A DNA stretch of 64,000 nt, from contig CAXXQE010000006.1 of assembly GCA_963665615.2 (NCBI GenBank), positions 585,165 through 649,164 on the forward strand. The letters are read 5' to 3'. Made by a program: the position numbers and the translations under genes. Positions 7,207 to 49,157 of this stretch are shown piece by piece (the first letter of the stretch is position 1; each line of letters opens with the position of its first letter). This DNA comes from Syntrophales bacterium. GTDB taxonomy: Bacteria > Desulfobacterota > Syntrophia > Syntrophales > UBA4778. The notes beneath the pieces were generated by a model. The model worked only from the letters and a program-made list of their open reading frames with translations, made no database searches and was not told the DNA's origin.

Positions 7207-7333
7207 AACGACCTCCTTCATAAGGAACAGAGAGGCACATACGTTTCCGCAGCGCCTCTCTGTTATAATGAAACAAACTTTATGATTCCCGACCAAGATT
7301 GGAAGAAAATCTCATATCACGCTAGACTCTTCC

Positions 7334-8152: not shown

Positions 8153-8263
8153 AACTTTCCTCCATGACATCTCTTTATAATGGATATAGAAATGTTAATT
8201 TATTATATCCCTTGTTTTCAACATCAGCAATGTACAAAAGAAGCTATAAAATCCTGCGGTCCG

Positions 8264-12577: not shown

Positions 12578-12588
12578 TTTTCTCTCCG

Positions 12589-13731: not shown

Positions 13732-13815
13732 CTGTCTTCTCCCGATTTAAGCTCCCATTTTAGAAATATCATTTTTCCGGTAAAACATTATCATGCGGCA
13801 ATTTAATGATAGAAG

Positions 13816-13864
13816 GCAGGCACTTCCATTTTTGGCAAGCGAGCCAACGAATGAAAGTGCCTGC
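13816..13864 (-). terminator. Stem-loop between the DUF1329 remnant and the BNR gene (possible attenuator/terminator)
   Basis: GCAGGCACTT (13816-13825) pairs with AAGTGCCTGC (13855-13864). There is an inner TTGGC/GCCAA stem. No clean U-tract. Confidence 0.35.
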
Positions 13865-13905
13865 ACCTCTTTTTCTTGTACTCTTCTTATACTTCTAACA
13901 ACTCT

Positions 13906-15303: not shown

Positions 15304-15324
15304 TATATTTCTACCTCCTTCCTA

Positions 15325-16998: not shown

Positions 16999-17796
16999 GT
17001 GCCCTCCAAATTTGATTTTGCAGAGATCTTTATTCGCATATCGCATTTAAACCTAGTGTGCTCTCTTGCATTTTCTTAATGTGTAAACTGAAGTAACGCC
17101 AAACGAGCAAGAGAATTGTTCCCGGCTCTTGTTCTGTTCAGCCCGCGCTGTTTTGTTTCGATCACAAAACAAACCCCTTGAAGATTAACCCCATGTTTAA
17201 TCTTCAAAAATTATTACGACCCTCCTTTCTAACTAAATTTATTAGTTCCCCCGATTCAGTGAACCGTCGATGCCCCCGGCCAGGTAAAGTCAGCGTTCCG
17301 TGTTGCGGACATCGGTCATATCGCCGTCATAAACCGCGCCGGGCTCTTCAAGATGACAGTGCCTATCCAACAAGTTAGGGGAATGTGCTTCAAGTCACTG
17401 GCACCTTGAAGCGCAGGTTATCTTTGCGCATCAGGTACGACATACGGTTTTTGCCTCAGATGTCGGCCTGTTGTTTGAGCTCCGGCTACATATGAGGCCG
17501 CCATTACTCTCATCGCTGTCGTGAAGAATGATATGGATCTTCGCCTGCAGGTCTGCATTGCCTTGCATATGTCAAGATACTGGCCTTTTCTGACAGGCAT
17601 AATAACCGCGCTGCGAGAAACCGAAAACACCCCACATAACCAAAATAGCAAATGCCGTTTCCTGCTCCTGAGGAAACGGAAAAATCATCTTGGGTCGGTC
17701 ATTGAGCCATAATGTCGATGTACATTATTGCGGGCACCCCACCCGCATGGTCAGCCCTTAGATTTTGGGCGTTAGATTTTATGACGATTTTAGATA

Positions 17797-18226: not shown

Positions 18227-21200
18227 ATGGCGACTATCCGCGAATTTTTATCAACCTTTTCAGATGATGAAAAATCGATTTTTTTCAGCTTCCGAGGCTT
18301 TCCAAATTATTTTTCAGTGGATTGGTTTTCAGAATTCCCTATTTCGACATTGATTGCTGTCATATCCGAAATTGAAAAACAGCAATGGCTTTCGCCTCAG
18401 CCAGGGAAGCGGGGGCACTATTTATGGACTTCAAAATTCCCCCAGCAAGAATGGAGCGCACAAATATCGCCGGAGGAAATGTCTAGACTGCATCGCAACT
18501 CAGTCGACAGACTTTCGAAAATTCTTCCGAAAGATGATGATATTCGTTTGGCTTTAGCCAAACAATGTATTCTGGCGGGATTACAGGAAGACGATTTGGC
18601 TATTATCACGGATGCGGCCCTTATTGAGGAAAACAAGAATAGAATATCAGACGCTATCCATCTTTATGACACCATCCTGTCTTTTATAGAACAATTAGTC
18701 ATCCGTGACGATGATTTATCGGAGACGACATGGAATATTTTTATTGATTCGATTGAACGTCGGGCGTCTCTCTCACTTTTGCACCCCACGCTGAGAAAAG
18801 CGAAACACTTTCTGAAGATCGCGCTGGAGCATGCCTGCAAGCGCAACAATCAAAAGACCCGCGCCTATATCGAGTTGTTAATCGGACAAAATTATTGGAT
18901 GCATTTTCAGCACAATCGGGCCATTGAGCATTTCAACCGCGGCTTGGAGATCATCAACACCCTTGATGACCGTGAACTTTACAAAAGAGCGCTTAAGATT
19001 CAGGGATTGATTCTCGCCGCCAAGGGCCACTACTTTGAAGCAATTAAGAGGTACGAAAACTCGCTGGGCGAATTGGAATCGCCTGAGAACAATGATTTTT
19101 TTCTCGTTGCGGCCCTAAATTTGTCTCTCTGCTACACGGAGGTCGGAATGCCTCAGAGGGGCCTCGGGATTTCAGAATCAATTCAAAAAAAATGTTCTAG
19201 AAATGACAACCTGCCCTTTATTAGCCTTCGCGCACACGACAGCAGGAATTATTTTTCTACATATTAGAAATCTCAAAGAAAGCAGATCAAATTTTGAAAA
19301 GGCCGCTGAACTTGCCAAATCCGCGCAACTCCCCATGATGGAAGGCCCTGGCGGGGATCGGCCTTGCCAATGTATGCTACTTTGAAGATGATAAGGACCG
19401 TGCCGCCGAGCATTTCAAATCTCTCTGGAAGATCTCAGAATCCGACTGGTATTGTTTTCTGAATTTCAGTCCTCTTTTAGAGGTGTTCTTTGCATTAAGA
19501 CCTAAATTTATCAATGATGGCATAGAGCATTTTTTTGATGTGCTTCGCACCATCAACCCCGAGGAAGTAGATCCTTTTGTTTATTCGGCCACTCAGCGCC
19601 TTTTACTTTTATCATCAGAAAATGAAAGCCCGCTCCAAGACAAAATTAATACCTTGTTAGCGTTAGAAGAAATGATAGAGGCGATGGGCGAGAGCATAGA
19701 AGCGTCCTTAATCAGGGCAGAACTGGCCAGACTATTCATGGTGGAGCGCGATATGCCGAAGGCGCAAGAATATGCATTAAAATCCTGGAAATTTCTCAAC
19801 TACAAAGCCAAGGCTTGTTTTCCTCTCGATTTGTTTCATTTGCTTCCTAAAGACTGCAAGGAATCCGAAAACACGATACTTGAACTGGTCATGACCATGG
19901 GTCGAGCGCTCGGTTATCAGGAAAATCCCGAAGAGACGCTTGTAAATATGATTTCTTTGATCGCCCAAATCGGCGGGGCAGAAAAAACGGGGCTTTTTGT
20001 AAAAGAAAAGAATTCATCAAATCTCAGACTGATTGCCTCCAGAAATCTTTTTCAGGAGGATGTAGAGGATGAGAGTTTTCATGAGAGCATGGAACTGATA
20101 AAATCTGCGGCCAATAACGCCGACAGCCTCCAATTTCTGCATTATGAGTTCGTCGGGAAAAAACGGATACTCCTTTCACCCATTATGCTGTCGCGAAAAA
20201 TTATTGGCGTACTTTATAAGGAGGGTCGTTTTCTCAACGTGGATATTGACATGGAAGACGATAACGAAAAATATATACCCATTCTCAACTCTCAAATTGC
20301 GCTCTCGATACAGCACCTTTTAGCGACTGCCGAAATCATGCAGTTGAACAAGAAATTACTTTCCGAAAATTTATACTATCTGGAGACGATGGACGAAATT
20401 CGCCCGTTCCGGGATATCGTCGGGACCAGCAAAGGGATTATGGAGGTACAGGCGCTTATCCGAAAAGTCGCCCCGACCCAATCAACGGTTTTAGTGCATG
20501 GAGAAACAGGGGTCGGAAAGGAGCTTGTTGCTCGAGCGATCCACCGAGAGAGTCCGAGAAAGGATGGGCCTTTCATTCGTGTTAATTGCGCCGCCCTTCC
20601 GGATACATTAATCGACAGTGAGCTCTTCGGACATGAAAAAGGGGCATTTACAGGCGCCACGCACACCAAGGCAGGTCGCTTTGAGCTCGCGAATAATGGA
20701 ACGATTTTTCTTGATGAGATTTCCGAACTTCCTCCCTCAACGCAAGCAAGATTGCTTAGGATTCTGCAAGAAAAGGAATTCCAGCGAGTAGGCGGCACCA
20801 AAACCCTGAGTTCGAATTTCCGGTTAGTCGCAGCGACGAACAAGGATTTATCCGATGCAGTCGAAAAGGGAAATTTTAGGGCGGATCTCTATTATCGATT
20901 GAATGTCTTTCCGATCAATGTTCCACCTCTCAGAGAGAGAATAGCGGATATCCCTCTACTCGTAGATCACTTTGTCAAATTCCATTGTACCCAAAATTCG
21001 AAAGAGTATCTCGGTATCTCCAATGCAGATATGGAAAATTTCAAGGCCTATTCCTGGCCGGGCAATATTCGTGAACTTTCGAATACAATCGAACTTGCCG
21101 TCATTATGGGAGGGGCAAAGCTTACGTTCCCTAAATTTAAACAGTATGATGATCGTGTTAAGCCAAGTCTCAACGAAAAATTTAATCTCAAAGATGGTGA

Positions 21201-21369
21201 ACGAGCGCGAATTTTGGAGGCTCTTGAAAAAAGTGGCGGAAAAATAGGCGGCAATGATGGGGCGGCTGCACTTGTAGGCCTAAATCGAACAACCCTCATC
21301 CATCGCATGAAAAAGCTGGGAATCAAAATCGAAAATCGGCAGACAATCTCCATTCAGAAGAGTGCCTAA
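18227..21369 (+). pseudogene. Sigma-54-dependent transcriptional activator (TPR-like N-terminal region, GAF-like domain, AAA+ domain, HTH) interrupted by two frameshifts
   Basis: ORFs 18227..19267, 19203..19385 and 19483..21369 lie in three different frames. Joined, they are collinear with the intact paralog 21522..24662 (MATIREFLSTFSDDEKSIFFSF...SVDWFS versus MNAVEDFFSGISEHDKEVFLSL...SIDWFS). The first shift is at or near the A8 run at 19185-19192; the second is near 19335-19350. The C-terminal part has GETGVGKE, GAFTGA and a C-terminal HTH. Confidence 0.75.
20668..20807. repeat. 140-bp block, 139/140 identical to the reverse complement of 22060-22199 (left copy)
   Basis: Checked base by base. 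There is a single mismatch (gagctc versus gaactc). Flanking paralogous sequence is only about 70 percent identical. Confidence 0.9.
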
Positions 21370-21521: not shown

Positions 21522-24500
21522 TTACGAAACAACTTTTTTTACCGAGATATTGTGCCTTTTAATACGAGACGCGAGCGTTGTTCGATTTAGGCCCAAAAGC
21601 GAAGCGGCACCGCTCGGTCCGCCAATTGTGCCATTCGTCAGCCTTAATGCCTTTAATATTTGTGCCTTCTCAAATTCCTTGGAATCCATAAACTCATTAT
21701 GGATGTTGTCGACTTTTTTTCTGTTTACAATATCACTAAATGAAATTTTGTCTTTTCCAAGAATTACGGATCGTTCGATAATGTTGGAAAGCTCCCGAAT
21801 ATTGCCCGGCCAGTTATAGTTGACAAGCTTATCCATCTCAGACTCTGGAATACCATCGAAGTGCTTGTTGAATTGAGAGCAATGTTGATGAAAGAAATGA
21901 ATTGCAAGCGGGGGAATGTCTTCTTTTCTCTCTCGCAAAGGCGGAACGAATATTGGGAAAATGTTAAGTCTGTAGAAAAGATCCGCCCTGAATTTTCCTT
22001 TCGCAACTTCTCTTTCCAGATCCTTGTTTGTTGCTGCAATCAGCCGGAAATCAGAAGAGAGGGTTTTGGTGCCGCCTACTCGCTGGAATTCCTTTTCTTG
22101 CAGAATCCTAAGCAATCTTGCTTGCGTTGAGGGAGGAAGTTCGGAAATCTCATCAAGAAAAATCGTTCCATTATTCGCGAGTTCAAAGCGACCTGCCTTT
22201 GTTTTTATTGCGCCGGTAAAAGCGCCCTTTTCATGACCAAACAATTCACTATCAATCAGGGTATCGGGCAATGCAGCACAATTTACTCGGATAAAGGGCT
22301 TGTCGCATCTTGGACTGTTATTGTGAATGGCTCTGGCAATGAGTTCTTTCCCAACCCCTGTTTCTCCATGGATTAGAACAGTAGACTGTGTCGAAGCAAC
22401 TTTTTGAATAAGCACTTGAACCTGTAAGATTGCACCGCTGATTCCGATAATGTTGCCGAAGGGGCGTAATTCCTTCTGTTCATCTTGGTAATACTGATTT
22501 TCTCGAATCAAATTTTTATTCAACTGCAGGATTTCATCATATGCCTGCGCCCGATCAACGGAAACGGCGATTTGTGTTCCCAATGCAGACAAAAGTTTAT
22601 GCTTTTGAGTGATGTTGTCAAAGGGAAGAAAACGGCTATCCAGATAAAGAACCCCCGTAACTCTTTTATTGAGAACGAGCGGCGTAATGCAAATATGAAG
22701 GGCATCATCGGAATCGTTAAACGAAATTTTCTTTTCGATTACACAACTATCTCGGCTTTCAGCAGTTAATTTTATTTTTTCTGAAACAGCCTTAAACCAT
22801 CGTTCATTCATATGTTCATACGTAAAGTTCCTGGAGGCTGTAATCTGCAATTCGGAAGAAAATTTATCCTTGATAAAAAGAGCTGTACGTTCAGCGCCCA
22901 TCATTCTTGATATTGACGTAATAATACTGCAAAGAAGCTGCTCCAGGTTTTCCTGATTCGATAGTGCTTCTCCAATTTCGATGATGAGTTCAGATAACTT
23001 GTTTTCATCCGTATTTTCCTCCTCATGAATAAAGTGTCTGAGATTGTTTGGAAAAAGATTTTTACAGATGGGCTTTAAAAACTTCCAAGCTGATTGCGCA
23101 TACAACTCCGCCGCTTCCCAATCATTTACTTGCAATGACATTGAAGCAATATCAGTTCTAAGTTTTGCCAATTCTATCGTTTCACCAATTTGACAAATGG
23201 AGGTTTCGATAGCCTTGAATTCTTCCAGCTTATCCTTGACCTGCAGATTCGGTTCTAAATATTTCAGGTGTTGCAACTTAATGAGGCCATGCAAAAAAGG
23301 ATTCAGCTGTTCTGCTCGAAGTCGATCCACATGATTGAGAAATAACTCGAGTTCTTTTGTATAAACATTTTGCGCATACAAAATATATCCAACATCAAAA
23401 ACAGGATATAGATTAAAAAAATGCAACCACTTTGATTTATGGATTTTGGCGAGGATTCTAAAGTGGTCGGCGGCGGCGGTATAATTTCCCTTCAAGCATT
23501 CGATTTTGGCCAGCCCAAGACTTGCAATCACCTCCTGCCTAGGAAGTCTTTCTTGAACCGAAAGGTTTAGTCCCTTTTCGAAATAGGTGCGGCTATTCTC
23601 CAGTTGCATGATTTCAAGGAGAATGCTTCCCATGGTCACCAGGGCATAGCTGGCCATAGGCCAATGTTTTTGTTTCTCTGTCTTGCTTAATATCGTTTCT
23701 GCTATTCCCAAACCACGTTGCGGCATCCCGATCTCAGCATATGATTGGGCAAGGTGAAGAGCCGTCACATAGGTGAGATCATCAGCTTCGAAATCCTCCG
23801 TTTTACCCAGAGATTCTTCATAGATTCGAATGGATTCATGAACCTGCCCTTTGAGCCAGAGTGAAAGACCTTGCAGTTGAAACCCCTTTCGATAGAGCAC
23901 CTGATCGTTAATCGTCTGGATCATTGCCCAGCCCCCATCGAAGTGGTCTGTTGAGGCTTTGTATTCGAGCTCCGTCCAGTAGTAAAGCCCCATGCAAAGA
24001 TGGAGAAACGCCTCATGTGCCTTCTCTTCGAGTTCCGCCGCAATAACCAGTCCTTTTGACAGCCAACGATAAATTTTTTCTTTATTAGGATCAAAAATGG
24101 TCGAATACGTTACGACCCGGGCTAATGCTTTTAAAAAAGTATAGAGCATTTCTTTGGGCGGTTTTGTCTCGGTTGTCTCCAGATAATTGTCAATAAACGA
24201 TAAGAGCGTATGAAGCAGGTTAATTGCCGATGAAATCCTATGCTGTTTTCTTTCAGTAACAGCCGCTCGGTAAATAATATTGATGTGAGATGGTTCCAGG
24301 CCGGCGGACAGACATTGGTGAGCGATGCTGAGAATCCCTTGATCATTCATGGGCAGATGTTCTTGAAGCATAGATACGGAATTTCGATAATAGGGCATCA
24401 TTATTTCTGGAGGAATTGCTTTCAAAAATGCGGAACGAGGAAAGTCTTTTGCCCATCGATAAAAACCGGGGTCATCCGAAATAGATGCGACCCATTTCTT

Positions 24501-24662
24501 TTGACTGAGAGCGCTAACCATCGTAAACAATTGTGACAAGAGAAAATTTGGATTACCGGAAAACCAATCAATTGAAAAATATTCTTTGAAAGCCAGGAGA
24601 CTTAAAAAGACTTCTTTATCATGTTCACTTATGCCTGAAAAAAAATCCTCAACGGCATTCAT
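21522..24662 (-). CDS. Sigma-54-dependent transcriptional activator, 1046 aa (TPR-like N-terminal region, GAF-like domain, AAA+ domain, Fis-type HTH)
   Basis: GETGVGKE Walker A, ELFGHEKGAFTGA sigma-54 contact motif, and ...GGPSGAASLLGLNRTTLASRIKRH HTH. Divergent from the 25168 operon and its -24/-12 promoter. Confidence 0.9.
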   Translation of the reverse strand: MNAVEDFFSGISEHDKEVFLSLLAFKEYFSIDWFSGNPNFLLSQLFTMVSALSQKKWVASISDDPGFYRWAKDFPRSAFLKAIPPEIMMPYYRNSVSMLQEHLPMNDQGILSIAHQCLSAGLEPSHINIIYRAAVTERKQHRISSAINLLHTLLSFIDNYLETTETKPPKEMLYTFLKALARVVTYSTIFDPNKEKIYRWLSKGLVIAAELEEKAHEAFLHLCMGLYYWTELEYKASTDHFDGGWAMIQTINDQVLYRKGFQLQGLSLWLKGQVHESIRIYEESLGKTEDFEADDLTYVTALHLAQSYAEIGMPQRGLGIAETILSKTEKQKHWPMASYALVTMGSILLEIMQLENSRTYFEKGLNLSVQERLPRQEVIASLGLAKIECLKGNYTAAADHFRILAKIHKSKWLHFFNLYPVFDVGYILYAQNVYTKELELFLNHVDRLRAEQLNPFLHGLIKLQHLKYLEPNLQVKDKLEEFKAIETSICQIGETIELAKLRTDIASMSLQVNDWEAAELYAQSAWKFLKPICKNLFPNNLRHFIHEEENTDENKLSELIIEIGEALSNQENLEQLLCSIITSISRMMGAERTALFIKDKFSSELQITASRNFTYEHMNERWFKAVSEKIKLTAESRDSCVIEKKISFNDSDDALHICITPLVLNKRVTGVLYLDSRFLPFDNITQKHKLLSALGTQIAVSVDRAQAYDEILQLNKNLIRENQYYQDEQKELRPFGNIIGISGAILQVQVLIQKVASTQSTVLIHGETGVGKELIARAIHNNSPRCDKPFIRVNCAALPDTLIDSELFGHEKGAFTGAIKTKAGRFELANNGTIFLDEISELPPSTQARLLRILQEKEFQRVGGTKTLSSDFRLIAATNKDLEREVAKGKFRADLFYRLNIFPIFVPPLRERKEDIPPLAIHFFHQHCSQFNKHFDGIPESEMDKLVNYNWPGNIRELSNIIERSVILGKDKISFSDIVNRKKVDNIHNEFMDSKEFEKAQILKALRLTNGTIGGPSGAASLLGLNRTTLASRIKRHNISVKKVVS
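22060..22199. repeat. 140-bp block (right copy, inverted) matching 20668-20807
   Basis: See the left copy. It covers the AAA+ segment ...KAGRFELANNGTIFLDEISELPPSTQARLLRILQEKEFQRVGGTKT in both genes. Confidence 0.9.
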
Positions 24663-24828: not shown

Positions 24829-24844
24829 TGGCATAAGATATGCA
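24829..24844 (+). promoter_or_regulatory. Sigma-54 (-24/-12) promoter candidate P1 for the 25168..30135 operon
   Basis: TGGCATaagatATGCA, with GG and GC in exact consensus register. It is divergent from the intact activator gene. The first start codon is about 325 nt downstream. Confidence 0.55.
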
Positions 24845-25096: not shown

Positions 25097-25135
25097 CTTT
25101 TGAATGGCCTCTCAATTTGAGAGGCCATTCAAAAG
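25097..25135. repeat. Perfect 39-bp palindrome (19-bp arms, 1-nt centre) in the operon leader
   Basis: CTTTTGAATGGCCTCTCAA-t-TTGAGAGGCCATTCAAAAG. It ends 32 nt before the GTG start at 25168 and lies just upstream of the GGAGAGGAGAAG Shine-Dalgarno. Confidence 0.85.
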
Positions 25136-25167: not shown

Positions 25168-26313
25168 GTGCAAAACAAATCCAGATTGGAAGCGCTTAAA
25201 GAACTCACATATCCAGCAAAAACCCTCTTTAATTCCCATTTAGAGGACTGGAGAAACAAAGGGGGGAAGGTTGTAGGATATTTTTGTTCCTTTGTGCCGC
25301 CGGAAATCATTTCCGCCGCCGGTCTTCTTCCCGTGAGAATGAGAGCTACCGGGAATAAAGGAACAGAACTATCGGATGCATATATGGGAAGCATAAGTTG
25401 TAGTTTTTCGAGAAACTGTCTCAATATGGCCCTGAAAGGAGACTATGACTTTTTAGATGGGATTATTTTTGGCAACACCTGTGATCAAGTCCGGCGGCTA
25501 TATGACATCTGGGAACGAAAGATGAGGCCGTGTATTAAAATATTGAGTATCCCTCGAAAGACGGGCAACGACCAAATCCAATGGTATCGTGACGAACTGG
25601 CTTCTTTAAGACTAGCACTCGGCAATCATTTCGGCGTTGAGATTAGCGATAAGTGCCTAAGAAAACAAATATGGATATATAATGAGACACGTCATCTGCA
25701 AAAGATGATTTTCCATCTTCTGAAAGCTAAGACCCCGCCCCTTAAAGGATCCGAAGTCTTATCTATTTTGGTTGCAGGAACGGCTATGCCAATTGAGCGT
25801 TACAATATTCTTTTGAAGAACTATCTTGATACCGTTACCAACGTCGAGGACACGGCCGATGCCAGACCGAGATTGATGATTATAGGTAGTATTTTAGATG
25901 ATCCAGATTATGTGAAAGTCATTGAGGATGTTGGTGCTCATGTCGTTGCTGGATATCATTGCTTCGCAAAGGCCGCCTGGAAAGATGCCATTGATGGTTC
26001 CGGAGACCCTTTGCAGGCTCTTGCGCATAGCTATATTGCGGATCTGCCATACTGCCCGCGGATGTTTGGCGTCTTTCCGAAGACGGCCGAGTATCTAAAA
26101 ACAATGATCAAAGAATTTAAAGTGGACGGTGTAATAGGCGAACGCATGCAATTCTGTGATTCGTCCGGTTTTCAAATGACCATGCTTGAGGATGAATTTA
26201 AGAAAGAGAATATCCCCTTTTTGGTTTTGGACAGGGAATACGTATTGGGCGGTATCGGTCAAATGAAGACGAGGGTGCAGGCGTTTCTTGAGACGTTGGA
26301 AGGAGGTAATTAG
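25168..26313 (+). CDS. 2-hydroxyacyl-CoA dehydratase / benzoyl-CoA reductase family (HGD-D) subunit 1
   Basis: 381 aa. Family-typical Cys motifs GYFCSFVPPEI, GNTCDQV and MQFCDSSG. GTG start with GGAGAGGAGAAG upstream. Confidence 0.85.
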   Translation: MQNKSRLEALKELTYPAKTLFNSHLEDWRNKGGKVVGYFCSFVPPEIISAAGLLPVRMRATGNKGTELSDAYMGSISCSFSRNCLNMALKGDYDFLDGIIFGNTCDQVRRLYDIWERKMRPCIKILSIPRKTGNDQIQWYRDELASLRLALGNHFGVEISDKCLRKQIWIYNETRHLQKMIFHLLKAKTPPLKGSEVLSILVAGTAMPIERYNILLKNYLDTVTNVEDTADARPRLMIIGSILDDPDYVKVIEDVGAHVVAGYHCFAKAAWKDAIDGSGDPLQALAHSYIADLPYCPRMFGVFPKTAEYLKTMIKEFKVDGVIGERMQFCDSSGFQMTMLEDEFKKENIPFLVLDREYVLGGIGQMKTRVQAFLETLEGGN

Positions 26314-27602
26314 TGGTGTTACAAAGCGCTAAAACGATGGAACATCTGAACGGGTTTCTTAAGGAGTATACCGCTATGGCCAGACACATGGCGAAGAGTT
26401 CAGACGAGGAACTTCAGTTGCAGGTCCCCATGCTCCAGCTTCTTATAGATGAGACTGAATTGCTCATTCAGTGTGCTGAAAAAGAGAAACCAATCGTAAT
26501 GAGCTGGTACAATCTCGCACCAGAGATATTTTCCGCCATGGATATCGTCTGGTATGATTTATCTCAGCTCATCGCGCCAACGTCACGATCAGTCGTAAAG
26601 AAATGGGCCGATGCCGATCAACTCTCACTCCCAAAAGACATTTGCAGTTTACATCGGTTAATGATGTCTGTGATTAAAAATGAGGAAGTTCCGGTTCCAA
26701 CGGCAATGATAGCCCTGCTCTATCCCTGCGACGGCGTTTCACCCTTTCACGATGCCGTGCTTCAGCGATGGCGCAATGTGCCTTATTTCGCCATAGATCC
26801 CCCCTATGAGGATGACGAGCGCTCAATCGCCTATGCCGCTGGAGAATTCAGGCATATGATCTCATTTCTCGAAGAACAAACAGGAATAAAAATGGATTTC
26901 CGCAGATTGAAACAAGCCGTGGAGGAATCCAATGCTCAATATCGGTTATTTATGGAGTACAACGAACTGAAACGGGCAATTCCCTGTCCCCATCAGTCTT
27001 TCTTCGGTACGGTATTAGGCCCAATAACCCAATGTTTTTATCTGTCAGCCGGAAAGCCGCGGGGCACGGCGCTTTTGAAAAGTTTTGTTGAGCACGCAGA
27101 AAAGCGCGTAAAAGAGAAAAAAGGGTCTTCATTCAAAGAAAGAATCCGGGTTTATTGGGCTGACTTGCCGCCCAATGCCATCATGGGAGAACTGAGACCC
27201 TGGCTGCAGGAAGAATGGGGCGCAAACGTGGTCATGGACTATGTGAGTGATTGTCCATATGAACTCATTGATACATCGAGTGAAGAAACCATTCTGCATG
27301 GACTGGCGGATAGATCTCTGAATCATTCCTGGATGATCAGACAGGCGCGGGGGCGTATAGATACGATCATTGATGACTATATACGGATCGTTAATGATTA
27401 CAAAATCGACTGTGTCTTCATTCCAGGTCACATGGGGCACAAAGATGGATCAGCTGCGCTGGGGCTTCTCAAAGAAGTATGTCGTGAGTTGGGGGTCCCG
27501 TCCCTGTATATTGGCATGGACCTTTGGGATCCGAGATATACCCCTATAGACGAAATGAAGGACAAGATTTCGACATTCTTCTCTACAATGGAATTGGGAT
27601 AA
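26313..27602 (+). CDS. HGD-D family subunit 2 (divergent; lacks Cys at two of the three expected ligand positions by eye)
   Basis: 429 aa. The GTG start overlaps the TAG stop of subunit 1 by 1 nt, with GGAGG upstream. It aligns with subunit 1: SWYNLAPEIF versus GYFCSFVPPEI, LYPCDGV versus GNTCDQV, and PGHMGHKDGS versus RMQFCDSSG. Confidence 0.8.
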   Translation: MVLQSAKTMEHLNGFLKEYTAMARHMAKSSDEELQLQVPMLQLLIDETELLIQCAEKEKPIVMSWYNLAPEIFSAMDIVWYDLSQLIAPTSRSVVKKWADADQLSLPKDICSLHRLMMSVIKNEEVPVPTAMIALLYPCDGVSPFHDAVLQRWRNVPYFAIDPPYEDDERSIAYAAGEFRHMISFLEEQTGIKMDFRRLKQAVEESNAQYRLFMEYNELKRAIPCPHQSFFGTVLGPITQCFYLSAGKPRGTALLKSFVEHAEKRVKEKKGSSFKERIRVYWADLPPNAIMGELRPWLQEEWGANVVMDYVSDCPYELIDTSSEETILHGLADRSLNHSWMIRQARGRIDTIIDDYIRIVNDYKIDCVFIPGHMGHKDGSAALGLLKEVCRELGVPSLYIGMDLWDPRYTPIDEMKDKISTFFSTMELG

Positions 27603-27651
27603 GGTTTATTTGGGTTAGAGAAGACTTGATATAAGAATAAGGAGCTATCGC

Positions 27652-28464
27652 ATGAATGTCAGCATGAATGGTTATTATTTTGGAGGCTGTGATGTAGGAT
27701 CCACTACAGGGAAAGCTGTGATTATGAAAGATGGAAATATTATCTCCCATTCAATTGTCAGATCCACCACGAAACCAGAGTTGACGGCACACATAGCGAC
27801 GGATGATGCAATCACGAAGGCGGGGTTAGGTTCGATAGATGATCTGACGTTCATTGTTGGGACAGGATATGGTCGCCTCAAGATCCCTTTTGCTAATGAG
27901 AATATTTCCGAGATAACGTGTCACGCCCGGGGTGCGAAGTGGCTGTCCCCTTCCGTTGGCACTGTGATCGATATCGGGGGGCAAGATTGTAAAGTCATGT
28001 CATTGGACGAGAAGGGCAAGGTTAAGGAATTTCTCATGAATGATAAGTGCGCTTCTGGAACCGGGCGCTTCTTCGAAGCTATGACACGGGTTCTTTCTTG
28101 CGATCTGGATGCGTTCTCATTACTCTCGCTCAATTCAAAAAAACCGGCAACCATTACTTCTCAGTGCAGTGTGTTTGCTGAGTCTGAAGTCATAACCCTG
28201 ATTAACGAAGGGGTCGATTTAGGTGAAATCTGTGCAGGCATTAATGAATCAATTGCGATTAGGTTAATTGCGATGGTGAGAAGAATAGGTTTCAATGGAG
28301 ATTTAACTGTAACGGGCGGTTGCGCAAAGAATGCGGGATTGATAGATGCGCTGGAGAAGCGGTTTGAAATAAGCATAAAAAGACTATCAGTGGATACCCA
28401 AATAGTTGGGGCAATAGGCGCATCGTTGATCGCCGCGGAAAAATGGCAAAAGAACAACAGCTGA
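27652..28464 (+). CDS. BcrAD/BadFG-type ATPase: activase of HGD/BCR-family enzymes (HgdC-like)
   Basis: GGCDVGSTTGKAV phosphate-1 motif, IDIGGQDCKV, and the two cluster-bridging Cys contexts NDKCASGTGRFFE and SQCSVFAESEV. AAGGAG upstream. Confidence 0.9.
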   Translation: MNVSMNGYYFGGCDVGSTTGKAVIMKDGNIISHSIVRSTTKPELTAHIATDDAITKAGLGSIDDLTFIVGTGYGRLKIPFANENISEITCHARGAKWLSPSVGTVIDIGGQDCKVMSLDEKGKVKEFLMNDKCASGTGRFFEAMTRVLSCDLDAFSLLSLNSKKPATITSQCSVFAESEVITLINEGVDLGEICAGINESIAIRLIAMVRRIGFNGDLTVTGGCAKNAGLIDALEKRFEISIKRLSVDTQIVGAIGASLIAAEKWQKNNS

Positions 28465-28503
28465 GTAAGATTTGACAAAAAGAGTTTACTTGAGGAATAG
28501 CAC

Positions 28504-29301
28504 ATGGCTGTCTTTGATGTGTATGTGGCAAAGCTAACTCAGTATATCGAGAATATGCGGGAGTGCGGCAGGCAAGTTCGAGAAATCAATTGTCCTTCCA
28601 CAAGCACTGAACTGCTGGAGGACCTTCCTGTTCGAATAGGCGAGCAACCTTGCCATGGGATCATCACTCGAGAAGATACTTATGTTGAAATGGGGAGCCA
28701 AGATGCAGGCTCCTGTTCTTTTCTTTTGTGGACGAAAAATCCATCTTTAATTTCTGGCGGGAAAATTACCGTAATTGGTCCAGATATCCTGGATTCACCG
28801 GGAGCCTGTTTGCCGTTTGGTCAGATTCTGATGATAGGGGGAGGAGACCTTTGCAATGAGGATCATGGTGTTCTAGAGCGAAAACAGTATATTTCAGACC
28901 AGATCGAAGGATATATGGCCAAGATCTTATCTCATCGTATCTGGGCCAGGGTGAGCAAGGATGCCGCATCAAAGGGTTTTAGCTTTGAAACCTTGGGAAG
29001 AGGGTTGATGGCCCTGTATAAATCAGGGCTCCCCAAGGTCGAGGATGTGGAGATTGTTTTTGTCACCTCAAGTAGAGATGATTTGAGACCCTTGCAGAGA
29101 ATGTCAAAAGAAGTTCGCAAAATAACAAAAAAGATCATGCGAGAAAACTGGAGTGCCAAAGGCTTTGACATAGAGTGCATTCTGGATTGCAGCCGCTGCC
29201 AAAATGCAACTGTATGCGATGAAATTAGAGAAGTCGTCTCAATCAGCAAACAACAAAGCGATGTTGTTATTAAGCAGTCCATAATAGAAAGGACGGGATG
29301 A
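28504..29301 (+). CDS. Protein resembling the central domain of acetyl-CoA synthase (AcsB/CdhC) without the N-terminal CODH-docking domain or the Ni-binding C-terminal part
   Basis: By-eye matches to remembered AcsB/CdhC segments: DTYVEMGS, GKITVIGPDI, VLERKQYISDQIEGYM, RIWARVSKDAASKGFSFETLG and VEIVFVTS. It ends shortly after LDCSRCQNATVC. The assignment relies on memory of ACS sequences, not on a search. Confidence 0.6.
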   Translation: MAVFDVYVAKLTQYIENMRECGRQVREINCPSTSTELLEDLPVRIGEQPCHGIITREDTYVEMGSQDAGSCSFLLWTKNPSLISGGKITVIGPDILDSPGACLPFGQILMIGGGDLCNEDHGVLERKQYISDQIEGYMAKILSHRIWARVSKDAASKGFSFETLGRGLMALYKSGLPKVEDVEIVFVTSSRDDLRPLQRMSKEVRKITKKIMRENWSAKGFDIECILDCSRCQNATVCDEIREVVSISKQQSDVVIKQSIIERTG

Positions 29302-29367
29302 TGTCCGACTTTGTAAATATTCAACGACGGCTTAAAGGCTGTATATACGGTTGGAAGGAGAATTTCC

Positions 29368-30135
29368 ATGTCCGAACCTGAAGGGAAATTAATAGCCATA
29401 TGCGGTAAGGGAGGTACAGGAAAGACTGCTTTAGCCGCTATGATGGCCAAAGTTATTCTGGACAGTGGTCAGAGGAGAAAACTATTGCTCATTGATGCCG
29501 ATCCAGCCACTGGTCTGGCTATTGCTCTTGGAGTAAAAATTAAACGCACCGTCGGGCAGATTCGAGAAAAAATTATCAGAACTGCTAAAGCAGGAGACAA
29601 AGGAGAAAAAAATCGGATAGCGGATAGCCTCGATTATATGGTCTTTGAGGCACTTAACGAGGTAAACGGCTTTACCCTTCTGGCCATGGGACGTACCGAA
29701 ACACTCGGTTGCTTTTGTCCTGTCAACGAGCTGTTGAGAGATATCTTGGGAAAGCTCTCCAGAAGTTTCGATATAATTATTATTGATTGTGAAGCCGGTC
29801 TGGAACAAATTAACAGACAAGTTGTGCATGCTGTGCATACACTTATTGTCGTCAGCGATCCTTCAATGAGAGGTTTGCAGACCGTATCCCTGATAAAGAA
29901 TATGGTGGAAACAGACAAAGTGATACGCTGCGAGAAAATGGGTTTGGTTTTCAATAGGCTGCAAGGCGAGGAGAATCAAATGAAACATTTCTCAGGGATG
30001 GAAATACTTGGATATGTTCCTCAAGACGAAAACATTATATATCACGATTCATCTGGAAAACCTTTATTGACGCTCCCAGATTCTTCACCTGCCCTCATTG
30101 AGGTTCGCAAAATTACAGAAAAGTGTTTGAACTGA
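29368..30135 (+). CDS. CooC/AcsF-type P-loop NTPase, copy 2
   Basis: ICGKGGTGKTA deviant Walker A, LIDADPATGL, and CxC motif LGCFCPVNELLR. GGAAGGAG upstream. Confidence 0.85.
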   Translation: MSEPEGKLIAICGKGGTGKTALAAMMAKVILDSGQRRKLLLIDADPATGLAIALGVKIKRTVGQIREKIIRTAKAGDKGEKNRIADSLDYMVFEALNEVNGFTLLAMGRTETLGCFCPVNELLRDILGKLSRSFDIIIIDCEAGLEQINRQVVHAVHTLIVVSDPSMRGLQTVSLIKNMVETDKVIRCEKMGLVFNRLQGEENQMKHFSGMEILGYVPQDENIIYHDSSGKPLLTLPDSSPALIEVRKITEKCLN

Positions 30136-30305: not shown

Positions 30306-30350
30306 ATTCGGCCGCATGTCTCACTTGGACATACGGCCGAATTTCATTTT
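30306..30350. terminator. Bidirectional intrinsic terminator between the plus-strand operon and the convergent EthD gene
   Basis: ATTCGGCCGCATGTC...GACATACGGCCGAAT (14/15 bp stem, 30306-30342) followed by TTCATTTT. On the other strand it is followed by GACGTTTT. Confidence 0.7.
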
Positions 30351-30454: not shown

Positions 30455-30757
30455 TTATATTATTATAGTGCTGGCTTGGATTTTCGGCGTAATGTCTGTA
30501 AAATTCGGAATATCTGACGCGATCTCTTTGGCACACTTAACTGCTGAATAAATCAATGAATCAGCCGACTCGAACTGCAGGGATACAATCGCCAGATAGG
30601 GCGAAGGGTAAAACTCCTGCGTTCCTTCTTCCACGGACATTCCTTTACATGCATCCCCGAAAAGCCTTTTAATCAGGACAACGTGTTTGTTGCAAAAATA
30701 GTCCATATCGAATTTATTGCCGGGGATATTGGGATATAAAATGCTCACCTTAATCAT
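30455..30757 (-). CDS. EthD-family protein (dimeric alpha/beta-barrel)
   Basis: 100 aa. The N-terminus MIKVSILYPNIPGNKFDMDYFCNKHVVLIKRL matches the EthD/TIGR02118-type pattern as I remember it. Confidence 0.65.
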   Translation of the reverse strand: MIKVSILYPNIPGNKFDMDYFCNKHVVLIKRLFGDACKGMSVEEGTQEFYPSPYLAIVSLQFESADSLIYSAVKCAKEIASDIPNFTDITPKIQASTIII

Positions 30758-30797: not shown

Positions 30798-31664
30798 CTA
30801 TTTTGTTTTTTTGTCAAAGTTATATTCTTCAATCGTCGGTAGACCGCCAACACGCGATGTCAGGCTCTTCAGAAAATCATCCACTGCTTCTTTGAGATTT
30901 TCGATCCGCATTGTTCTCGCCCCGACCGGGCACTCTCGAACGCAGACACCGCAGCCACTGCACTGTTCCTGATTGGTTTTGGATTTCCCATCCTCGATGG
31001 TGATGCAGGACCCAAAACAGTCGGGAATACACTGACCGCATCCGATACACTTTTCCTCATCAACAAATACCTGGAGCCCCTTGAGTCGATGGAAAATCTG
31101 CCTGTCCGGGCCCTTCGGCATCTGCCTTCTGAGCTTGATGGTACCGCAGCAGCACGTGCAGCACAGACAAACCGTGAAGAACGGCTGGGAAATGTCCCAA
31201 ATCTGAAGATCGGCTTCGAAGTGACCGACCATCGGGATTAAGCCAGCATCAACGCATTTGCGCACGTGAGCGATGGTTTCTTCCACTGTGGCATGCTTGA
31301 CATTGTCGTCGTTATGCTCAGCGGTGGAGGTGCCGATATGGATACAACCATATTCATTGTAAGGGTATTTCTTGCACTTCTTGCCTTCCCGGCAGTTGCA
31401 GACATTGCAGATCACTCTGTGGGGCGACCGTCTGATAATTTCTTCCAGGATGACCAATGGCAAGGGAGTGCTGACAGAATTAATCTCGACATTCATTGGA
31501 ATATGATACAGGCTGAAAAGATCAGGCTGGGCCAGCGCCTCCGCCCGTTCTTTCGCTGCTTCACCCAACACGGGCACATCGAGGTCATCAAACAACTTCC
31601 AGGATACGGCCATCAGTTCAAGTTCCTTCGGCGTTCTTTTACTTTTTCTTTTCGGTTCATCCAT
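30798..31664 (-). CDS. Uncharacterised Cys-rich Fe-S protein, paralog B
   Basis: 288 aa. Closest to paralog A: PLPLVILEEIIRRSPHRVICNVCNCREGKKC...YGCIHIG, TVCLCCTCCC, CIGCGQCIPDC, CSGCGVCVRECP, and tail ...SRVGG as in A. Confidence 0.8.
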   Translation of the reverse strand: MDEPKRKSKRTPKELELMAVSWKLFDDLDVPVLGEAAKERAEALAQPDLFSLYHIPMNVEINSVSTPLPLVILEEIIRRSPHRVICNVCNCREGKKCKKYPYNEYGCIHIGTSTAEHNDDNVKHATVEETIAHVRKCVDAGLIPMVGHFEADLQIWDISQPFFTVCLCCTCCCGTIKLRRQMPKGPDRQIFHRLKGLQVFVDEEKCIGCGQCIPDCFGSCITIEDGKSKTNQEQCSGCGVCVRECPVGARTMRIENLKEAVDDFLKSLTSRVGGLPTIEEYNFDKKTK

Positions 31665-31873: not shown

Positions 31874-33112
31874 TTAGCAATAGTCCAGCACCACTTTGAT
31901 GGCATTCGTTTTCCCCTTTGAGTGAACACACCGTACTGCATCCTGATATTGCTCAATCGGAAAGGCATGCGTGACCAGGCCCGCAAAGGCTGACGGGTCC
32001 TGCGCCATGACTTCGAGCGCAAAAGCAAAGGGCTCCGGCGTCCGTCCCGCCAAAGGAATTTTCCCGGAAAAGACAGCGCCAGACACTGTGATCTCTTTCC
32101 AGACCACCAGCGACCAGTCCACTTTTTTCGTCACTTCGAAGGCCAAGCCGACAATCACGACCCGGCCATTACTCCTGACCAGCCGGAGACAGTCATCCAG
32201 CGAATCTTCCGAACCAACTGTATCATAAATGACGTCAGGACCTTTGTTGCCATAAAGCACCCGCTTGCTCATAATCGGGCTGAAAAGCGGACCGCCGGTC
32301 AAGTCAGCAACCTTGTCATACAGCTTCTCGCTATCGCGTTCCACAATGACGTCGTTGGAACCAAGCTGGGAAGCCTTTTCCGCCTGCGATGGGTAACGCG
32401 CCAGGGTGATGATCCGACACTTCGAACCAAGTGCCCGCAGCGCCTTGATCGTCATCAGACCAATGATCCCGGCCCCGACAACAACGACCGTGTCGCTGTC
32501 CTTCGGCATATTCCGCGCCACAGCATGCAGCCCGATGGTGAAGGGTTCGGAAAGGACCGCCACATTATCCGCCACATTATCCGGCACCAGGTGGAATTGC
32601 TGCTCGAAACCAATCAGCTTCTCGCTGAACCCGCCGCCACCGAACCCGCCGAACCCGCCGCGGCCGCCATACGCCTGTTCCTTGTCCGTTCCGTCACCGA
32701 CGCCAACCATACAGAAGCACTCCTCATAATTGCCGTTCTCGCAACAGTTGCAGGGTTTGAATCCATAGAAGCTGCAGCGGGCCAGGGGATTGAGCACGAC
32801 CCGGTCTCCCGGTCGCAGACTGCTGACAGCCGGTCCGACGTCCTCAACGGTGCCAACAACTTCATGCCCCAGCGGCGATGGATTCATGGGCAAAGCCAGC
32901 ATAGTGGTATAGAGAGACCACGCCGCATCTATCGAATGCAGATCGGAGGCGCAGATGCCCCCCAATCGCGTCTTGACGACAACCTGGTTAGGATGAAGAA
33001 TCTTCGGATCGGGCCAATCGTCACGATACTCGATTAAAATGAACTCGCCACCCTGACCTTTTTGCTTCTGTTCGAGTCTTTCGGGACTGCAATTAAACAT
33101 TGCTGCTTTCAT
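31874..33112 (-). CDS. Zinc-dependent medium-chain alcohol dehydrogenase family protein with a Gly-rich insertion
   Basis: ORF 31874..33124. The ATG at 33112 (MKAAMF...) has GGAGG 5 nt upstream. Motifs GICASDLH, GHEVVGTV, structural-Zn Cys cluster CNCCENGNYEEC, and Rossmann VVVVGAGIIG. Confidence 0.85.
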   Translation of the reverse strand: MKAAMFNCSPERLEQKQKGQGGEFILIEYRDDWPDPKILHPNQVVVKTRLGGICASDLHSIDAAWSLYTTMLALPMNPSPLGHEVVGTVEDVGPAVSSLRPGDRVVLNPLARCSFYGFKPCNCCENGNYEECFCMVGVGDGTDKEQAYGGRGGFGGFGGGGFSEKLIGFEQQFHLVPDNVADNVAVLSEPFTIGLHAVARNMPKDSDTVVVVGAGIIGLMTIKALRALGSKCRIITLARYPSQAEKASQLGSNDVIVERDSEKLYDKVADLTGGPLFSPIMSKRVLYGNKGPDVIYDTVGSEDSLDDCLRLVRSNGRVVIVGLAFEVTKKVDWSLVVWKEITVSGAVFSGKIPLAGRTPEPFAFALEVMAQDPSAFAGLVTHAFPIEQYQDAVRCVHSKGKTNAIKVVLDYC

Positions 33113-33211
33113 AAATGCCTCCAAAATAACAATCTGATCGCAATAAAATGGAATTCAGGGGGATGGTTCATCTATCTAATTGTTAAATTACACATATCCA
33201 TCCATAACTGA

Positions 33212-46059: not shown

Positions 46060-46072
46060 GTTTCCCCGCGCT

Positions 46073-46960: not shown

Positions 46961-46986
46961 CATCTTCCTCCAGAGCATATTTCCGA

Positions 46987-47062
46987 GTCATTGCGGGTGA
47001 AGGAAGCAATCTCGTCCACTTTCTTCCTGAGATTGCTTCGTCACTACGTTCCTCGCAATGAC
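46987..47062. repeat. Nested inverted repeats in the fhs-folD intergenic region
   Basis: Outer arms GTCATTGCG (46987-46995) and CGCAATGAC (47054-47062). Inner arms GAAGCAATCTC (47003-47013) and GAGATTGCTTC (47029-47039). Confidence 0.8.
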
Positions 47063-47143
47063 AGGTTCACACATATTTTAATGGCCCGTCGCTCAGCGAC
47101 TGCGACGTCAGCCGCTGCCTGTCTTATCACAAATTGTCGATTT

Positions 47144-48847: not shown

Positions 48848-49157
48848 AAAATACTCCCGAATGATTTTATACGCCCCGCCGACCAGTGGCCGGCGCCCTT
48901 GCGCGTCACGAGTGCGCGATGGGATCGGGTTCGCCCGCTTGCTACACGAGCAAAGAGCCGATTTATTAAAGCATCCCCTGTCACACCTTGTCAAAGGGAT
49001 TTGCGCCAAAGGTTGTTGACCGAGACACCGCCCGATCGGCAGGACCTCAGGCTGAGGCACAGTCGGCCGACGTGTCGTTTAATTGTCTTGACATAAACCC
49101 TTGTCTATCGGATAGACTGATATCTAATACGCTTGAACACAAGGCCATAAGGATTCT

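Follow-up and report, generated by a model that had tools for sequence, protein, structure and literature searches.

Benzoyl-coenzyme A (CoA) reductases (BCRs), 2-hydroxyacyl-CoA dehydratases (HADs) and double-cubane cluster proteins (DCCPs) catalyse reactions that are among the most strongly reducing in biology. The characterised systems of this family, as far as we know, all pair a core enzyme with an ATP-dependent activator and draw on a generic ferredoxin or flavodoxin for electrons, which the activator injects at very low potential. The ATPases CooC and AcsF are nickel insertases for the C- and A-clusters of carbon monoxide dehydrogenase (CODH) and acetyl-CoA synthase (ACS), and acsB is often accompanied by acsF or cooC. 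Here we describe a cassette of five genes, g1 to g5, in which a BCR/HAD-type core is joined by an ACS-derived protein and a CooC-like ATPase. It occupies positions 25168-30135 of a 64,000-nucleotide (nt) stretch of DNA from a Syntrophales bacterium (contig CAXXQE010000006.1 of GenBank assembly GCA_963665615.2, positions 585,165 to 649,164), which we refer to as the window. Wherever we find it, the cassette adds g4, and usually g5, to the core. The chemistry of the core is probably familiar in type; the recurrent pairing with g4 and g5 is the surprising part. Full-text searches of the literature yielded no description of the cassette, and the co-mentions that we did find, for Calderihabitans and in papers on CODH context, were rejected because they concern separate loci. 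The genes of the cassette are:

25168-26313, + strand: g1, 381 amino acids (aa), an HGD-D subunit of the BzdN/BcrC type
26313-27602, + strand: g2, 429 aa, an HGD-D subunit of the BzdO/HadB type, predicted to be catalytic
27652-28464, + strand: g3, 270 aa, an ASKHA ATPase ('activase') of the HgdC/HadI/DCCP-R type
28504-29301, + strand: g4, 265 aa, a stand-alone ACS-derived protein
29368-30135, + strand: g5, 255 aa, a SIMIBI P-loop ATPase resembling CooC and AcsF

An earlier reading of the window, which we call the original prediction, had placed five co-directional open reading frames (ORFs) here. All are present at these coordinates on the + strand, with the predicted junctions of -1, 49, 39 and 66 nt from g1 to g5, and all five starts are preceded by a Shine-Dalgarno sequence (GGAGAGGAG, GGAAGGAGG, AAGGAG, GAGGAA and GGAAGGAG). 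The same reading took g1 and g2 for HGD-D subunits, g3 for an activase with both bridging cysteines, g4 for the central domain of AcsB/CdhC and g5 for a CooC/AcsF-type ATPase with a CxC motif. Profile searches upheld all five domain assignments, with the scores given below for each protein.

The combination of genes is not peculiar to this genome. A word-indexed search gave 339 matches to the g4 family, and at 50% identity clustering (E≤1e-30) the family has 151 representatives of about 240-290 aa. Scanning species-representative genomes we identified 72 g4 loci, all of them in metagenome-assembled genomes (MAGs) and mostly from Dehalococcoidia/Chloroflexota; the other carriers were delta/Thermodesulfobacteriota, Binatia, Myxococcales, Spirochaetales, Bacteroidales, Acidobacteria, Gammaproteobacteria and Bacteriovoracaceae. 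The closest g4 match among the scanned GTDB species representatives was 60%. Another 80 loci came from metagenomes scanned with a distant subfamily of g4, six sequences of which made up the query. Counting those loci that had enough flanking sequence, g1 and g2 lie upstream of g4 in 54 of 54 loci of the window's clade, g3 does so in 51 of 54, and g5 is adjacent or nearby in 65 of 68, with the gene order g1-g2-g3-g4-g5 or g3-g1-g2-g4-g5. The deep subfamilies follow the order g1-g2(-g2)-g3-g3-g4-g5; here g1 and g2 were present in 24/30 loci, g3 in 27/30, two ATPase genes in 21/30 and an adjacent g5 in 47/62. At least two g2-like genes surround a single g4 in 14 loci of the window's clade and in 9 deep loci, and several of these carry two or three g1-g2 pairs, as would be expected if g4 and g5 were shared accessory components. 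The pairwise-distance matrices of the five families correlate with one another (r 0.68-0.90), and none of 500 permutations reached the observed value. The five families therefore co-diverge and form a conserved, co-inherited module. The original prediction had staked itself on three points, and on each our searches came out in its favour: g4 does match ACS, no characterised system of this kind was found, and the cassette recurs, in approximately 150 loci.

The g1 protein matches the Pfam HGD-D family (3e-84), and its best solved structure is BzdN (8s02_B, 1e-40); it matches HadC at 9e-32. Its best NCBIfam match is the double-cubane model NF040772 (7e-54), with a score of 183 against an equivalog cut-off of 350. 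In the structure of BzdNO (PDB 8S02; Fuchs et al. 2025, PMC11971306) the [8Fe-9S] double cubane of BzdN is held by Cys36, Cys73, Cys100, Cys263, Cys293 and Cys327. These six ligands align one-to-one with C40, C78, C105, C265, C296 and C330 of g1, which are conserved at 98-100% in 61 cassette-linked homologues and in 24 of 25 deep-clade sequences. The alignment predicts that g1 is an [8Fe-9S] double-cubane subunit used for electron storage.

The second subunit, g2, also belongs to the Pfam HGD-D family (4e-46). A profile of the g2 family, built from 29 sequences, matched BzdO most strongly (8e-31), followed by HadB (1e-24), DCCP (2e-22) and MbdO (7e-18). The catalytic [4Fe-4S]-OH2 cluster of BzdO is ligated by Cys95, Cys128 and Cys380 (PMC11971306), and BzdO and HadB are the proper comparators for the ligands of g2. 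In the profile alignment C111 takes the position of Cys95, C139 falls approximately at Cys128, H376 replaces Cys380 and H373 stands in place of Asn377; the P-C-D-G segment around C139 resembles the T-C-D-G of DCCP. We predict that C111, C139 and H376 are the cluster ligands of g2, and that H373 and C390 are conserved residues specific to the clade. The original prediction had two of the three ligand cysteines missing from g2. One is indeed lost, through the change of Cys380 to H376; the other position, in the YNLAPE segment, corresponds to Trp46 of BzdO and is not a ligand in BzdO/HadB-type subunits. The H373/H376/C390 signature is found in 70 of 81 g2-like ORFs of the window's clade. Because the deep cassettes carry the canonical cysteine at position 376 (40/40), and lack H376 and C390, the signature is a derived trait of this clade. 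A non-standard cofactor, which the original prediction had read from the missing cysteines, is accordingly less strongly indicated, since a single ligand has changed. The g2 proteins of this clade are also an example from nature of a Cys-to-His change among the ligands of the catalytic [4Fe-4S] cluster, which is relevant to the tuning of radical Fe-S chemistry.

We also observed that residue 67 of g2 (26511-26513), which corresponds to Cys36 of BzdN and Trp46 of BzdO, is a cysteine in 64% of the clade and an asparagine in the window. No further ligands of a second sub-cluster are conserved beside this position in the g2 clade.

The activase g3 matches BcrAD_BadFG (6e-52) and the activase model TIGR00241 (2e-70). 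Its two bridging cysteines, C133 and C172, are 100% conserved and lie 39 residues apart, a spacing that we take to match that of Cys127 and Cys166 in HgdC, and g3 is predicted to be a homodimer that bridges one [4Fe-4S] cluster. The window has one activase gene, as is the rule for its clade, and two ATPase genes are the commoner arrangement in the deep loci. Set against the NCBIfam models of class I BCR, the scores were 151 for TIGR02263 (cut-off 421), 141 for TIGR03190 (cut-off 454) and 36 for TIGR02260 (cut-off 487). All equivalog scores fall far below their cut-offs; the core belongs to no named enzyme and represents an uncharacterised branch of the BCR/HAD/DCCP family. To judge by its sequence, it would be a mosaic of a BCR-like double-cubane subunit, a single activator like that of HADs and DCCPs, and a Cys2-His catalytic site.

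The fourth gene is the one that sets the cassette apart. The g4 protein matches the Pfam CdhC family (1e-20) and ACS/CdhC structures in the PDB (7e-18), and its family profile spans residues 311-484 of Moorella thermoacetica ACS, which is the middle, or A2, domain. Scores against the NCBIfam models were 72-85, with cut-offs of 356-809. An AlphaFold model of g4 (pLDDT 76, pTM 0.73) used in a fold search retrieved ACS/CdhC structures only, with 23 PDB matches at E<1e-3 (TM(query) 0.45-0.53) and the next match at E ~1. In the crystal structure of ACS with acetyl-CoA the ligand is contacted mainly by A2 residues (bioRxiv 10.1101/2024.08.05.606187). Since A2 binds acetyl-CoA in ACS and the homology of g4 is to A2, g4 corresponds to the CoA-binding domain of ACS. 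Its most conserved motif, D-Q-I-E-G-Y-M ... W147-x-R149, is collinear with the segment of ACS that forms the CoA pocket.

Beyond this domain g4 carries a short cysteine tail, C225-x3-C229-x2-C232-x5-C238, and ends 27 residues after C238. Conservation was assessed on an alignment of 123 full-length representatives. Three cysteines of the tail, C229, C232 and C238, form a C-x2-C-x5-C motif that is kept without exception (124/124). The A-cluster of ACS is formed by Cys506, Cys509, Cys518 and Cys528 together with Cys595-Gly-Cys597, and contains two Ni. Pairwise alignment places C229 and C232 against both cysteines of the CdhC segment GCTLCQSF; from the collinear spacing in the A2 profile, these are presumably Cys506 and Cys509, the first two ligands of the A-cluster [4Fe-4S]. 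The CODH-binding A1 domain, the A3 core and the Cys-Gly-Cys Ni ligands are all absent from g4. C30 and H121 were considered as extra ligands of a Ni site and ruled out, as neither is conserved across the representatives. A natural fusion protein, P0202, gives a further indication of function. Its g4-like part has a D-C-x2-C-x5-C motif of its own and is followed by a C-terminal 2x[4Fe-4S] ferredoxin domain (Fer4 3e-13). The fusion occurs on two independent metagenome contigs (L166, 235-1161, and L167, 216-1142), with the C-terminus of an activase on one side and a CooC-like gene on the other. By analogy, this architecture favours a role of g4 in electron transfer over one in cofactor assembly.

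For g5 the best solved structure is CooC1 (3kje), with an E-value of 1e-14 from the single sequence and of 4e-23 over the full length from the profile; MinD follows at 4e-16. The protein has the deviant Walker A motif GKGGTGKT. Across 65 sequences neither this motif (G13-K-G-G-x-G-K-T20) nor C115-x-C117 varies; the latter aligns with the C-Y-C of CooC1, the metal-binding motif that CooC/AcsF ATPases carry at their dimer interface. An invariant CxC is the hallmark of a Ni/Zn-binding metallochaperone. No CODH or ACS that g5 might serve is encoded nearby; the one candidate is g4, in which the Ni ligands are missing.

A second CooC-like locus lies elsewhere in the window (780-8170, - strand). Its ATPase, of 254 aa (4386-5150), shares 35% identity with g5 (1e-45) as well as the G-C-x-C motif, and is surrounded by three Cys-rich proteins of 278-307 aa with 2x[4Fe-4S] domains (3492-4361, 6373-7296 and 7334-8170). 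The latter are paralogues (31% identity, 3e-33) of a Fer4 protein encoded convergently to the cassette. The locus also holds an unrelated 261-aa ORF, a short-chain dehydrogenase/reductase (SDR) and an HdrD-like CCG protein. The 261-aa ORF, which sits beside the second CooC-like gene, was considered as a second copy of g4 and rejected (hhalign probability 0.2%). The position of the second ATPase among Cys-rich Fer4 proteins suggests that the CooC-like ATPases of this genome serve Fe-S clients other than CODH.

What substrate might the core act on? The original prediction noted the lack of CoA-ester enzymes near the operon and concluded that the substrate could be something other than a CoA thioester. 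That argument rests on a single window, and across loci such enzymes recur. The families that recur in the flanks are:

acyl-CoA dehydrogenase, 12 loci
ADP-forming acyl-CoA synthetase-like protein, 10 loci
SCP-x-type thiolase, 8 loci
DUF35/ChsH2 OB-fold protein, with the thiolase, 7 loci
SDR, 8 loci
AFOR, 5 loci
CoA-transferase III, 4 of ~76 loci
old yellow enzyme (OYE)-type reductase, 4 loci
thiolase, 4 loci

As CoA-ester enzymes dominate the flanks, the substrate is most likely an acyl-CoA thioester. Neither CODH nor a corrinoid Fe-S protein was among the recurrent flanking families or the annotated ORFs of the window, and no pair of 2-hydroxyacid dehydrogenase and family-I CoA-transferase was seen in the flank census. 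In some Chloroflexota loci (L002, L004, L020) the flanks repeatedly contain APH-type kinases, a conserved ORF of ~375 aa, OYE-type reductases and AFOR; the ~375-aa ORF has no confident Pfam match, with a faint resemblance to DUF7064 in L002. These flanks may hint at a pathway for an alicyclic or steroid-like acyl-CoA.

Taken together, we propose a model in which a BCR/HAD-type core receives its electrons through g4, with g5 as the partner of g4, and we give this model as a whole about an even chance of being correct. For the core, the sequences support the model well. The g3 homodimer, with its bridging [4Fe-4S] cluster, would use ATP hydrolysis to push an electron into g1. There a BzdN-like [8Fe-9S] double cubane on six cysteines would pass electrons on to g2, the putative substrate-binding subunit of the BzdO/HadB type, whose cluster would be held by two cysteines and a histidine in the window's clade. 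Because the double cubane is an electron-storage cofactor, the reaction would more probably be a reduction than a redox-neutral dehydration. We propose that g4, a partner both integral and ancestral to the whole clade, acts as an adaptor dedicated to electron entry, docking to the activase or the core much as a ferredoxin would, with an Fe-S site formed by the three invariant cysteines and a variable fourth ligand; it may also hold a CoA moiety. We favour g4 as an Fe-S electron-transfer partner on account of the ferredoxin fusion in P0202 and the invariant three-Cys site. In turn g5 could load or maintain the metal site of g4, or could act as its nucleotide-dependent partner; it was probably recruited together with g4 from a pair of the acsB-acsF type.

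Several observations weigh against this model. The adaptor role of g4 leans on one fusion architecture and on analogy, and a plain substitute for ferredoxin would not obviously need a CooC-type ATPase. The fourth cysteine of the tail, C225, is a cysteine in 95/124 representatives only, so a fourth ligand is not conserved, and the tail is modelled with low confidence (pLDDT ~55) and predicted to be flexible. In place of the adenine-stacking Trp of bacterial ACS (Trp418 in M. thermoacetica), g4 has a methionine (Met138), a substitution that archaeal CdhC shares, and CoA binding by g4 is therefore only putative. A neighbouring g5 is missing from the deep loci L146, L147, L154, L155, L160 and L165, and g4 can thus apparently work without an adjacent g5 gene. 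On the side of the core, the positions of Glu65, His131 and Trp46 of BzdO are occupied in g2 by Thr/Leu, Gly and Asn67 in the profile alignment, which is less certain near Glu65. With the Glu65/His131 acid-base pair missing, the chemistry may differ from a Birch-type reduction. The neighbours of the operon in the window are redox proteins and regulators, with no gene of CoA metabolism adjacent. Finally, the ~150 related loci all come from MAGs or metagenome contigs of uncultured organisms.

How do other explanations compare? The original prediction hypothesised that the ACS-like protein and the CooC-like ATPase assemble or deliver the cofactor of a new ATP-dependent enzyme. Its union of an ATP-driven Fe-S enzyme with an ACS-derived protein and a CooC-like ATPase stands; cofactor assembly for g2 is disfavoured by the canonical g2 of the deep cassettes, by the missing Ni ligands of g4 and by the ferredoxin fusion. 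In this reading, which we consider unlikely, g4 and g5 would be an ACS/AcsF-derived system that delivers a non-standard, possibly Ni-containing cluster to a Cys2-His2(-Cys) site in g2. A CooC-like g5 with an invariant CxC and P-loop would fit, as would the replacement of the third Cys ligand by H373-x-G-H376-K...C390 in the window's clade, and the two genes, nearly always adjacent and present as one set for several g1-g2 pairs, are distributed as a maturase might be. However, deep cassettes that combine a canonical g2 with a six-Cys g1 still have g4 and usually g5, and a subclade within the first set of loci (L068, L071, L074, L075) is likewise canonical. It follows that g4 and g5 did not evolve for the His site; their association is ancestral and independent of His376 in g2, and we rejected the idea that they track this variant. 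Moreover, canonical BzdNO clusters are made in E. coli from a plasmid with bzdNO only (PMC11971306). Every ACS Ni ligand beyond the bridging Cys is gone from g4, and the g4-ferredoxin fusion suits a redox role better than that of a scaffold. It is more doubtful still that g4 is itself catalytic, with a site-differentiated [4Fe-4S] cluster and a metal inserted by g5 next to the CoA-binding A2 domain. Here g4 would carry out thioester or C-C chemistry on an acyl-CoA (carbonylation/decarbonylation or thiolysis), and the BCR-like core would supply the ATP-boosted electrons. The three invariant cysteines with a variable fourth position are found family-wide, A2 is the acetyl-CoA-binding domain of ACS, the best-conserved motif follows the CoA pocket, and conservation extends to the CooC-like partner. 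Opposite C232 in the pairwise alignment stands the second Cys of GCTLCQSF, which, again from collinear spacing, is presumably the Ni-bridging Cys509. Against this, no conserved residue is available to complete a Ni site, the entire A3 core that shapes the A-cluster is gone, flexibility is predicted for the Cys tail, which is short, g5 is not adjacent in some subfamilies, and the ferredoxin fusion suggests plain electron transfer. Equally speculative, and in our view improbable, is that g4 and g5 are a new kind of metallo-module taken from an ACS/AcsF pair. In it, g4 would have a site-differentiated [4Fe-4S] cluster on the three invariant cysteines beside the CoA-binding A2 domain, and g5 would either load Ni onto it or act as a NifH-like, ATP-driven second electron gate. 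Were this so, the cassette would perform two-ATPase, Ni-Fe-S-assisted thioester or C-C chemistry on acyl-CoAs at extremely low potential, which is known in neither parent family.

A separate question concerns the chemistry of the core. The core could be a HAD-type radical enzyme that catalyses a redox-neutral dehydration or isomerisation and needs the activase only catalytically, without stoichiometric use of ATP, although we judge this rather unlikely. The single activase gene of the window's clade is as in HADs and DCCPs and unlike the paired ATPase subunits of BCRs, HadB is matched strongly by the g2 profile, and the proton-delivery pair Glu65/His131 of BzdO is absent from g2. A fermentative or β-oxidation-like route would likewise be in keeping with the neighbouring SDR and acyl-CoA dehydrogenase genes. 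Yet g1 keeps the six-Cys [8Fe-9S] motif, and the double cubane is an electron-storage site in BCR, while the HAD β subunit has only a [4Fe-5S] remnant (PMC11971306). The two ATPase genes of the deeper relatives are as in BCRs, and the gene pair expected of a HAD pathway was not seen in the flank census. The last alternative is that the adjacency is fortuitous, or that g4 and g5 are decaying remnants of an acs operon unlinked to the HGD-D genes. Genes of the Wood-Ljungdahl methyl branch (MTHFR, FolD and FTHFS) do lie 14-19 kb away, which indicates ACS-related genes in the lineage. This explanation is effectively refuted. The gene order is kept in MAGs of Chloroflexota, Desulfobacterota, Binatia, Myxococcota, Spirochaetales, Acidobacteriota, Bacteroidales and Gammaproteobacteria, the five families co-diverge, and CODH is not among the recurrent neighbours. 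With 151 representatives of similar length and invariant motifs, g4 must be under purifying selection.

If the electron-entry model is correct, g4 represents a new wiring of BCR-type enzymes into metabolism and a new use for the ancient CoA-binding domain of ACS. Should g5 insert metal, the CooC/AcsF chaperones would reach beyond CODH/ACS. The clade that carries the cassette is large, phylogenetically broad (Dehalococcoidia, Desulfobacterota, Binatia, Myxococcota and other phyla), wholly uncultured and so far hidden. Annotation pipelines label the g5 family 'CO dehydrogenase maturation factor', and cassette genes are automatically annotated under this name and as 'CO dehydrogenase/acetyl-CoA synthase beta subunit'. 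Such labels can wrongly imply Wood-Ljungdahl or CO metabolism in reconstructions from MAGs, and BCR-like matches are often taken for aromatic degradation.

We turn now to the surroundings of the operon, where the following features bear on its transcription:

21522..24662, - strand: sigma-54 enhancer-binding protein of 1046 aa, divergent from the operon
24829..24844, + strand: sigma-54 -24/-12 candidate TGGCATAAGATATGCA (TGGCAT-N5-ATGCA), ~325 nt upstream of g1
25097..25135: perfect 19-bp palindrome, CTTTTGAATGGCCTCTCAA t TTGAGAGGCCATTCAAAAG, its arms separated by 1 nt, 32 nt before the start codon of g1
30306..30350: hairpin ATTCGGCCG-N19-CGGCCGAAT followed by the T-tract TTCATTTT, between the convergent operons after g5, found by eye in the sequence

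The 1046-aa protein has a TPR-like N-terminus, a GAF domain, an AAA+ sigma-54 interaction domain and a Fis-type helix-turn-helix (Pfam Sigma54_activat 1.8e-70, GAF_3, HTH_8 and TPR). The sigma-54 promoter candidate named in the original prediction is present and faces this divergent gene; it has the correct GG-N10-GC spacing and two mismatches to TGGCAC-N5-TTGCW. As a pattern it does not rise above chance, with 35 matches at two mismatches across the window where 29.9 are expected, and its support comes from the context. Judging from position, the operon is probably transcribed from this candidate sigma-54 promoter and regulated by the divergent GAF-domain enhancer-binding protein. The palindrome just 5' of the g1 ribosome-binding site has fully (100%) complementary arms, is the sole copy found in the window by repeat search and is not followed by a T-tract. 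It could be either a leader hairpin or an operator, that is, a protein-binding site. Within the operon, scan matches to sigma-70 promoters and intrinsic terminators were not above the shuffled expectation. The hairpin after g5, which was missed by the simple terminator scan owing to its long loop, probably marks the transcript end together with its T-tract. Given this hairpin and the lack of an excess of internal promoters or terminators, g1 to g5 look like a single transcript. A second sigma-54 enhancer-binding protein (19483-21369, + strand) lies tail-to-tail with the first and is preceded by a TPR protein (18227-19267); of the two enhancer-binding proteins only that at 21522-24662 faces the cassette.

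Three genes converge on the operon from downstream:

30455-30757, - strand: EthD-family protein
30798-31664, - strand: Cys-rich protein of 288 aa with 2x[4Fe-4S]
31874-33124, - strand: Zn-dependent alcohol dehydrogenase

These neighbours may be functionally linked to the cassette, and they fall outside its conserved part: homologues of the 288-aa Fer4 protein adjoin the cassette in only three other loci (L012, L043 and L065). Further away, the window holds the methyl-branch genes mentioned above (44506-49060, - strand), namely MTHFR (methylenetetrahydrofolate reductase) with a C-terminal DUF5981 domain, FolD and formate-tetrahydrofolate ligase (FTHFS); CODH/ACS was not found among the annotated ORFs of the window. 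A gene cluster at 10130-17046 (- strand) encodes DUF1302, BNR/YCF48-like and MMPL/RND-like proteins. Together with this cluster, LptD (62277-63986) and a PEP-CTERM protein (40595-41887) indicate a diderm host, probably a Desulfobacterota-like anaerobe, whereas most carriers of the cassette are Chloroflexota. In some Chloroflexota MAGs (L007/L033, 1825-6034, and L036, 1-3162, - strand) the cassette stands back-to-back with a more classical BCR-like set of two BcrAD and two HGD-D genes, in which the g2-like protein has the signature S-G-C and no His376. There the cassette and the classical BCR-like set coexist as distinct systems.

Among the known systems, the core of the cassette resembles the Bzd-type BCR (BzdNOPQ). 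The g1 subunit is closest to BzdN and retains its six [8Fe-9S] ligands, g2 is closest to BzdO and keeps two of the three [4Fe-4S] ligands in place, and electrons are activated by an ATP-dependent ASKHA module, for which the deeper cassettes have two ATPase genes, as in BzdP/Q. In contrast to this BCR, the window's clade has one ATPase gene, Cys380 has become His376, the catalytic triad of Glu65, His131 and the benzoyl-pocket residue Trp46 is not conserved and the equivalog cut-offs of NCBIfam are not reached by the cassette proteins. We know of no counterpart of g4 or g5 in BCR systems. Published accounts of BCR and of the BCR/HAD family contain none (PMC11971306, PMC7317905). The HADs (HadBC/HadI and HgdAB/HgdC, PDB 3O3M), which dehydrate (R)-2-hydroxyacyl-CoA, likewise pair two HGD-D proteins with a single homodimeric activator that has two bridging cysteines. 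They differ in that HadC holds a [4Fe-5S] cluster where g1 has six cluster cysteines, and in that their [4Fe-4S] is held by three cysteines where g2 has Cys-Cys-His; the cassette lacks the 2-hydroxyacid dehydrogenase and family-I CoA-transferase, and has g4 and g5. The DCCP/DCCP-R system of Carboxydothermus hydrogenoformans (6ENO/7YYL) resembles the cassette in the double-cubane match of g1 and in its single activator-type ATPase. However, DCCP is a homodimer encoded by one gene with a double cubane in each subunit, whereas the cassette has two distinct subunits with the motif in g1 only; g2 lacks the ligands of the second sub-cluster and scores 48 on NF040772, compared with 183 for g1 and the cut-off of 350.

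The remaining two genes find their likeness in AcsB/CdhC and AcsF/CooC. The g4 protein has the A2 fold and the CxxC that pairs with CdhC, and a CooC-type ATPase is encoded next downstream. Unlike AcsB/CdhC, g4 has neither A1 nor the A3 core, lacks the Cys595-Gly-Cys597 Ni site and has neither CODH nor a corrinoid protein among its recurrent flanking families. An ACS-wide phylogeny contains only A2-A3 and A1-A3 forms, in CODH clusters (bioRxiv 10.64898/2026.07.07.736967). For its part, g5 aligns along its entire length with CooC1 of C. hydrogenoformans (3KJE), and the two share the deviant Walker A motif and the position of the CxC, but g5 is divergent in sequence (single-sequence 1e-14) and is not associated with CODH.

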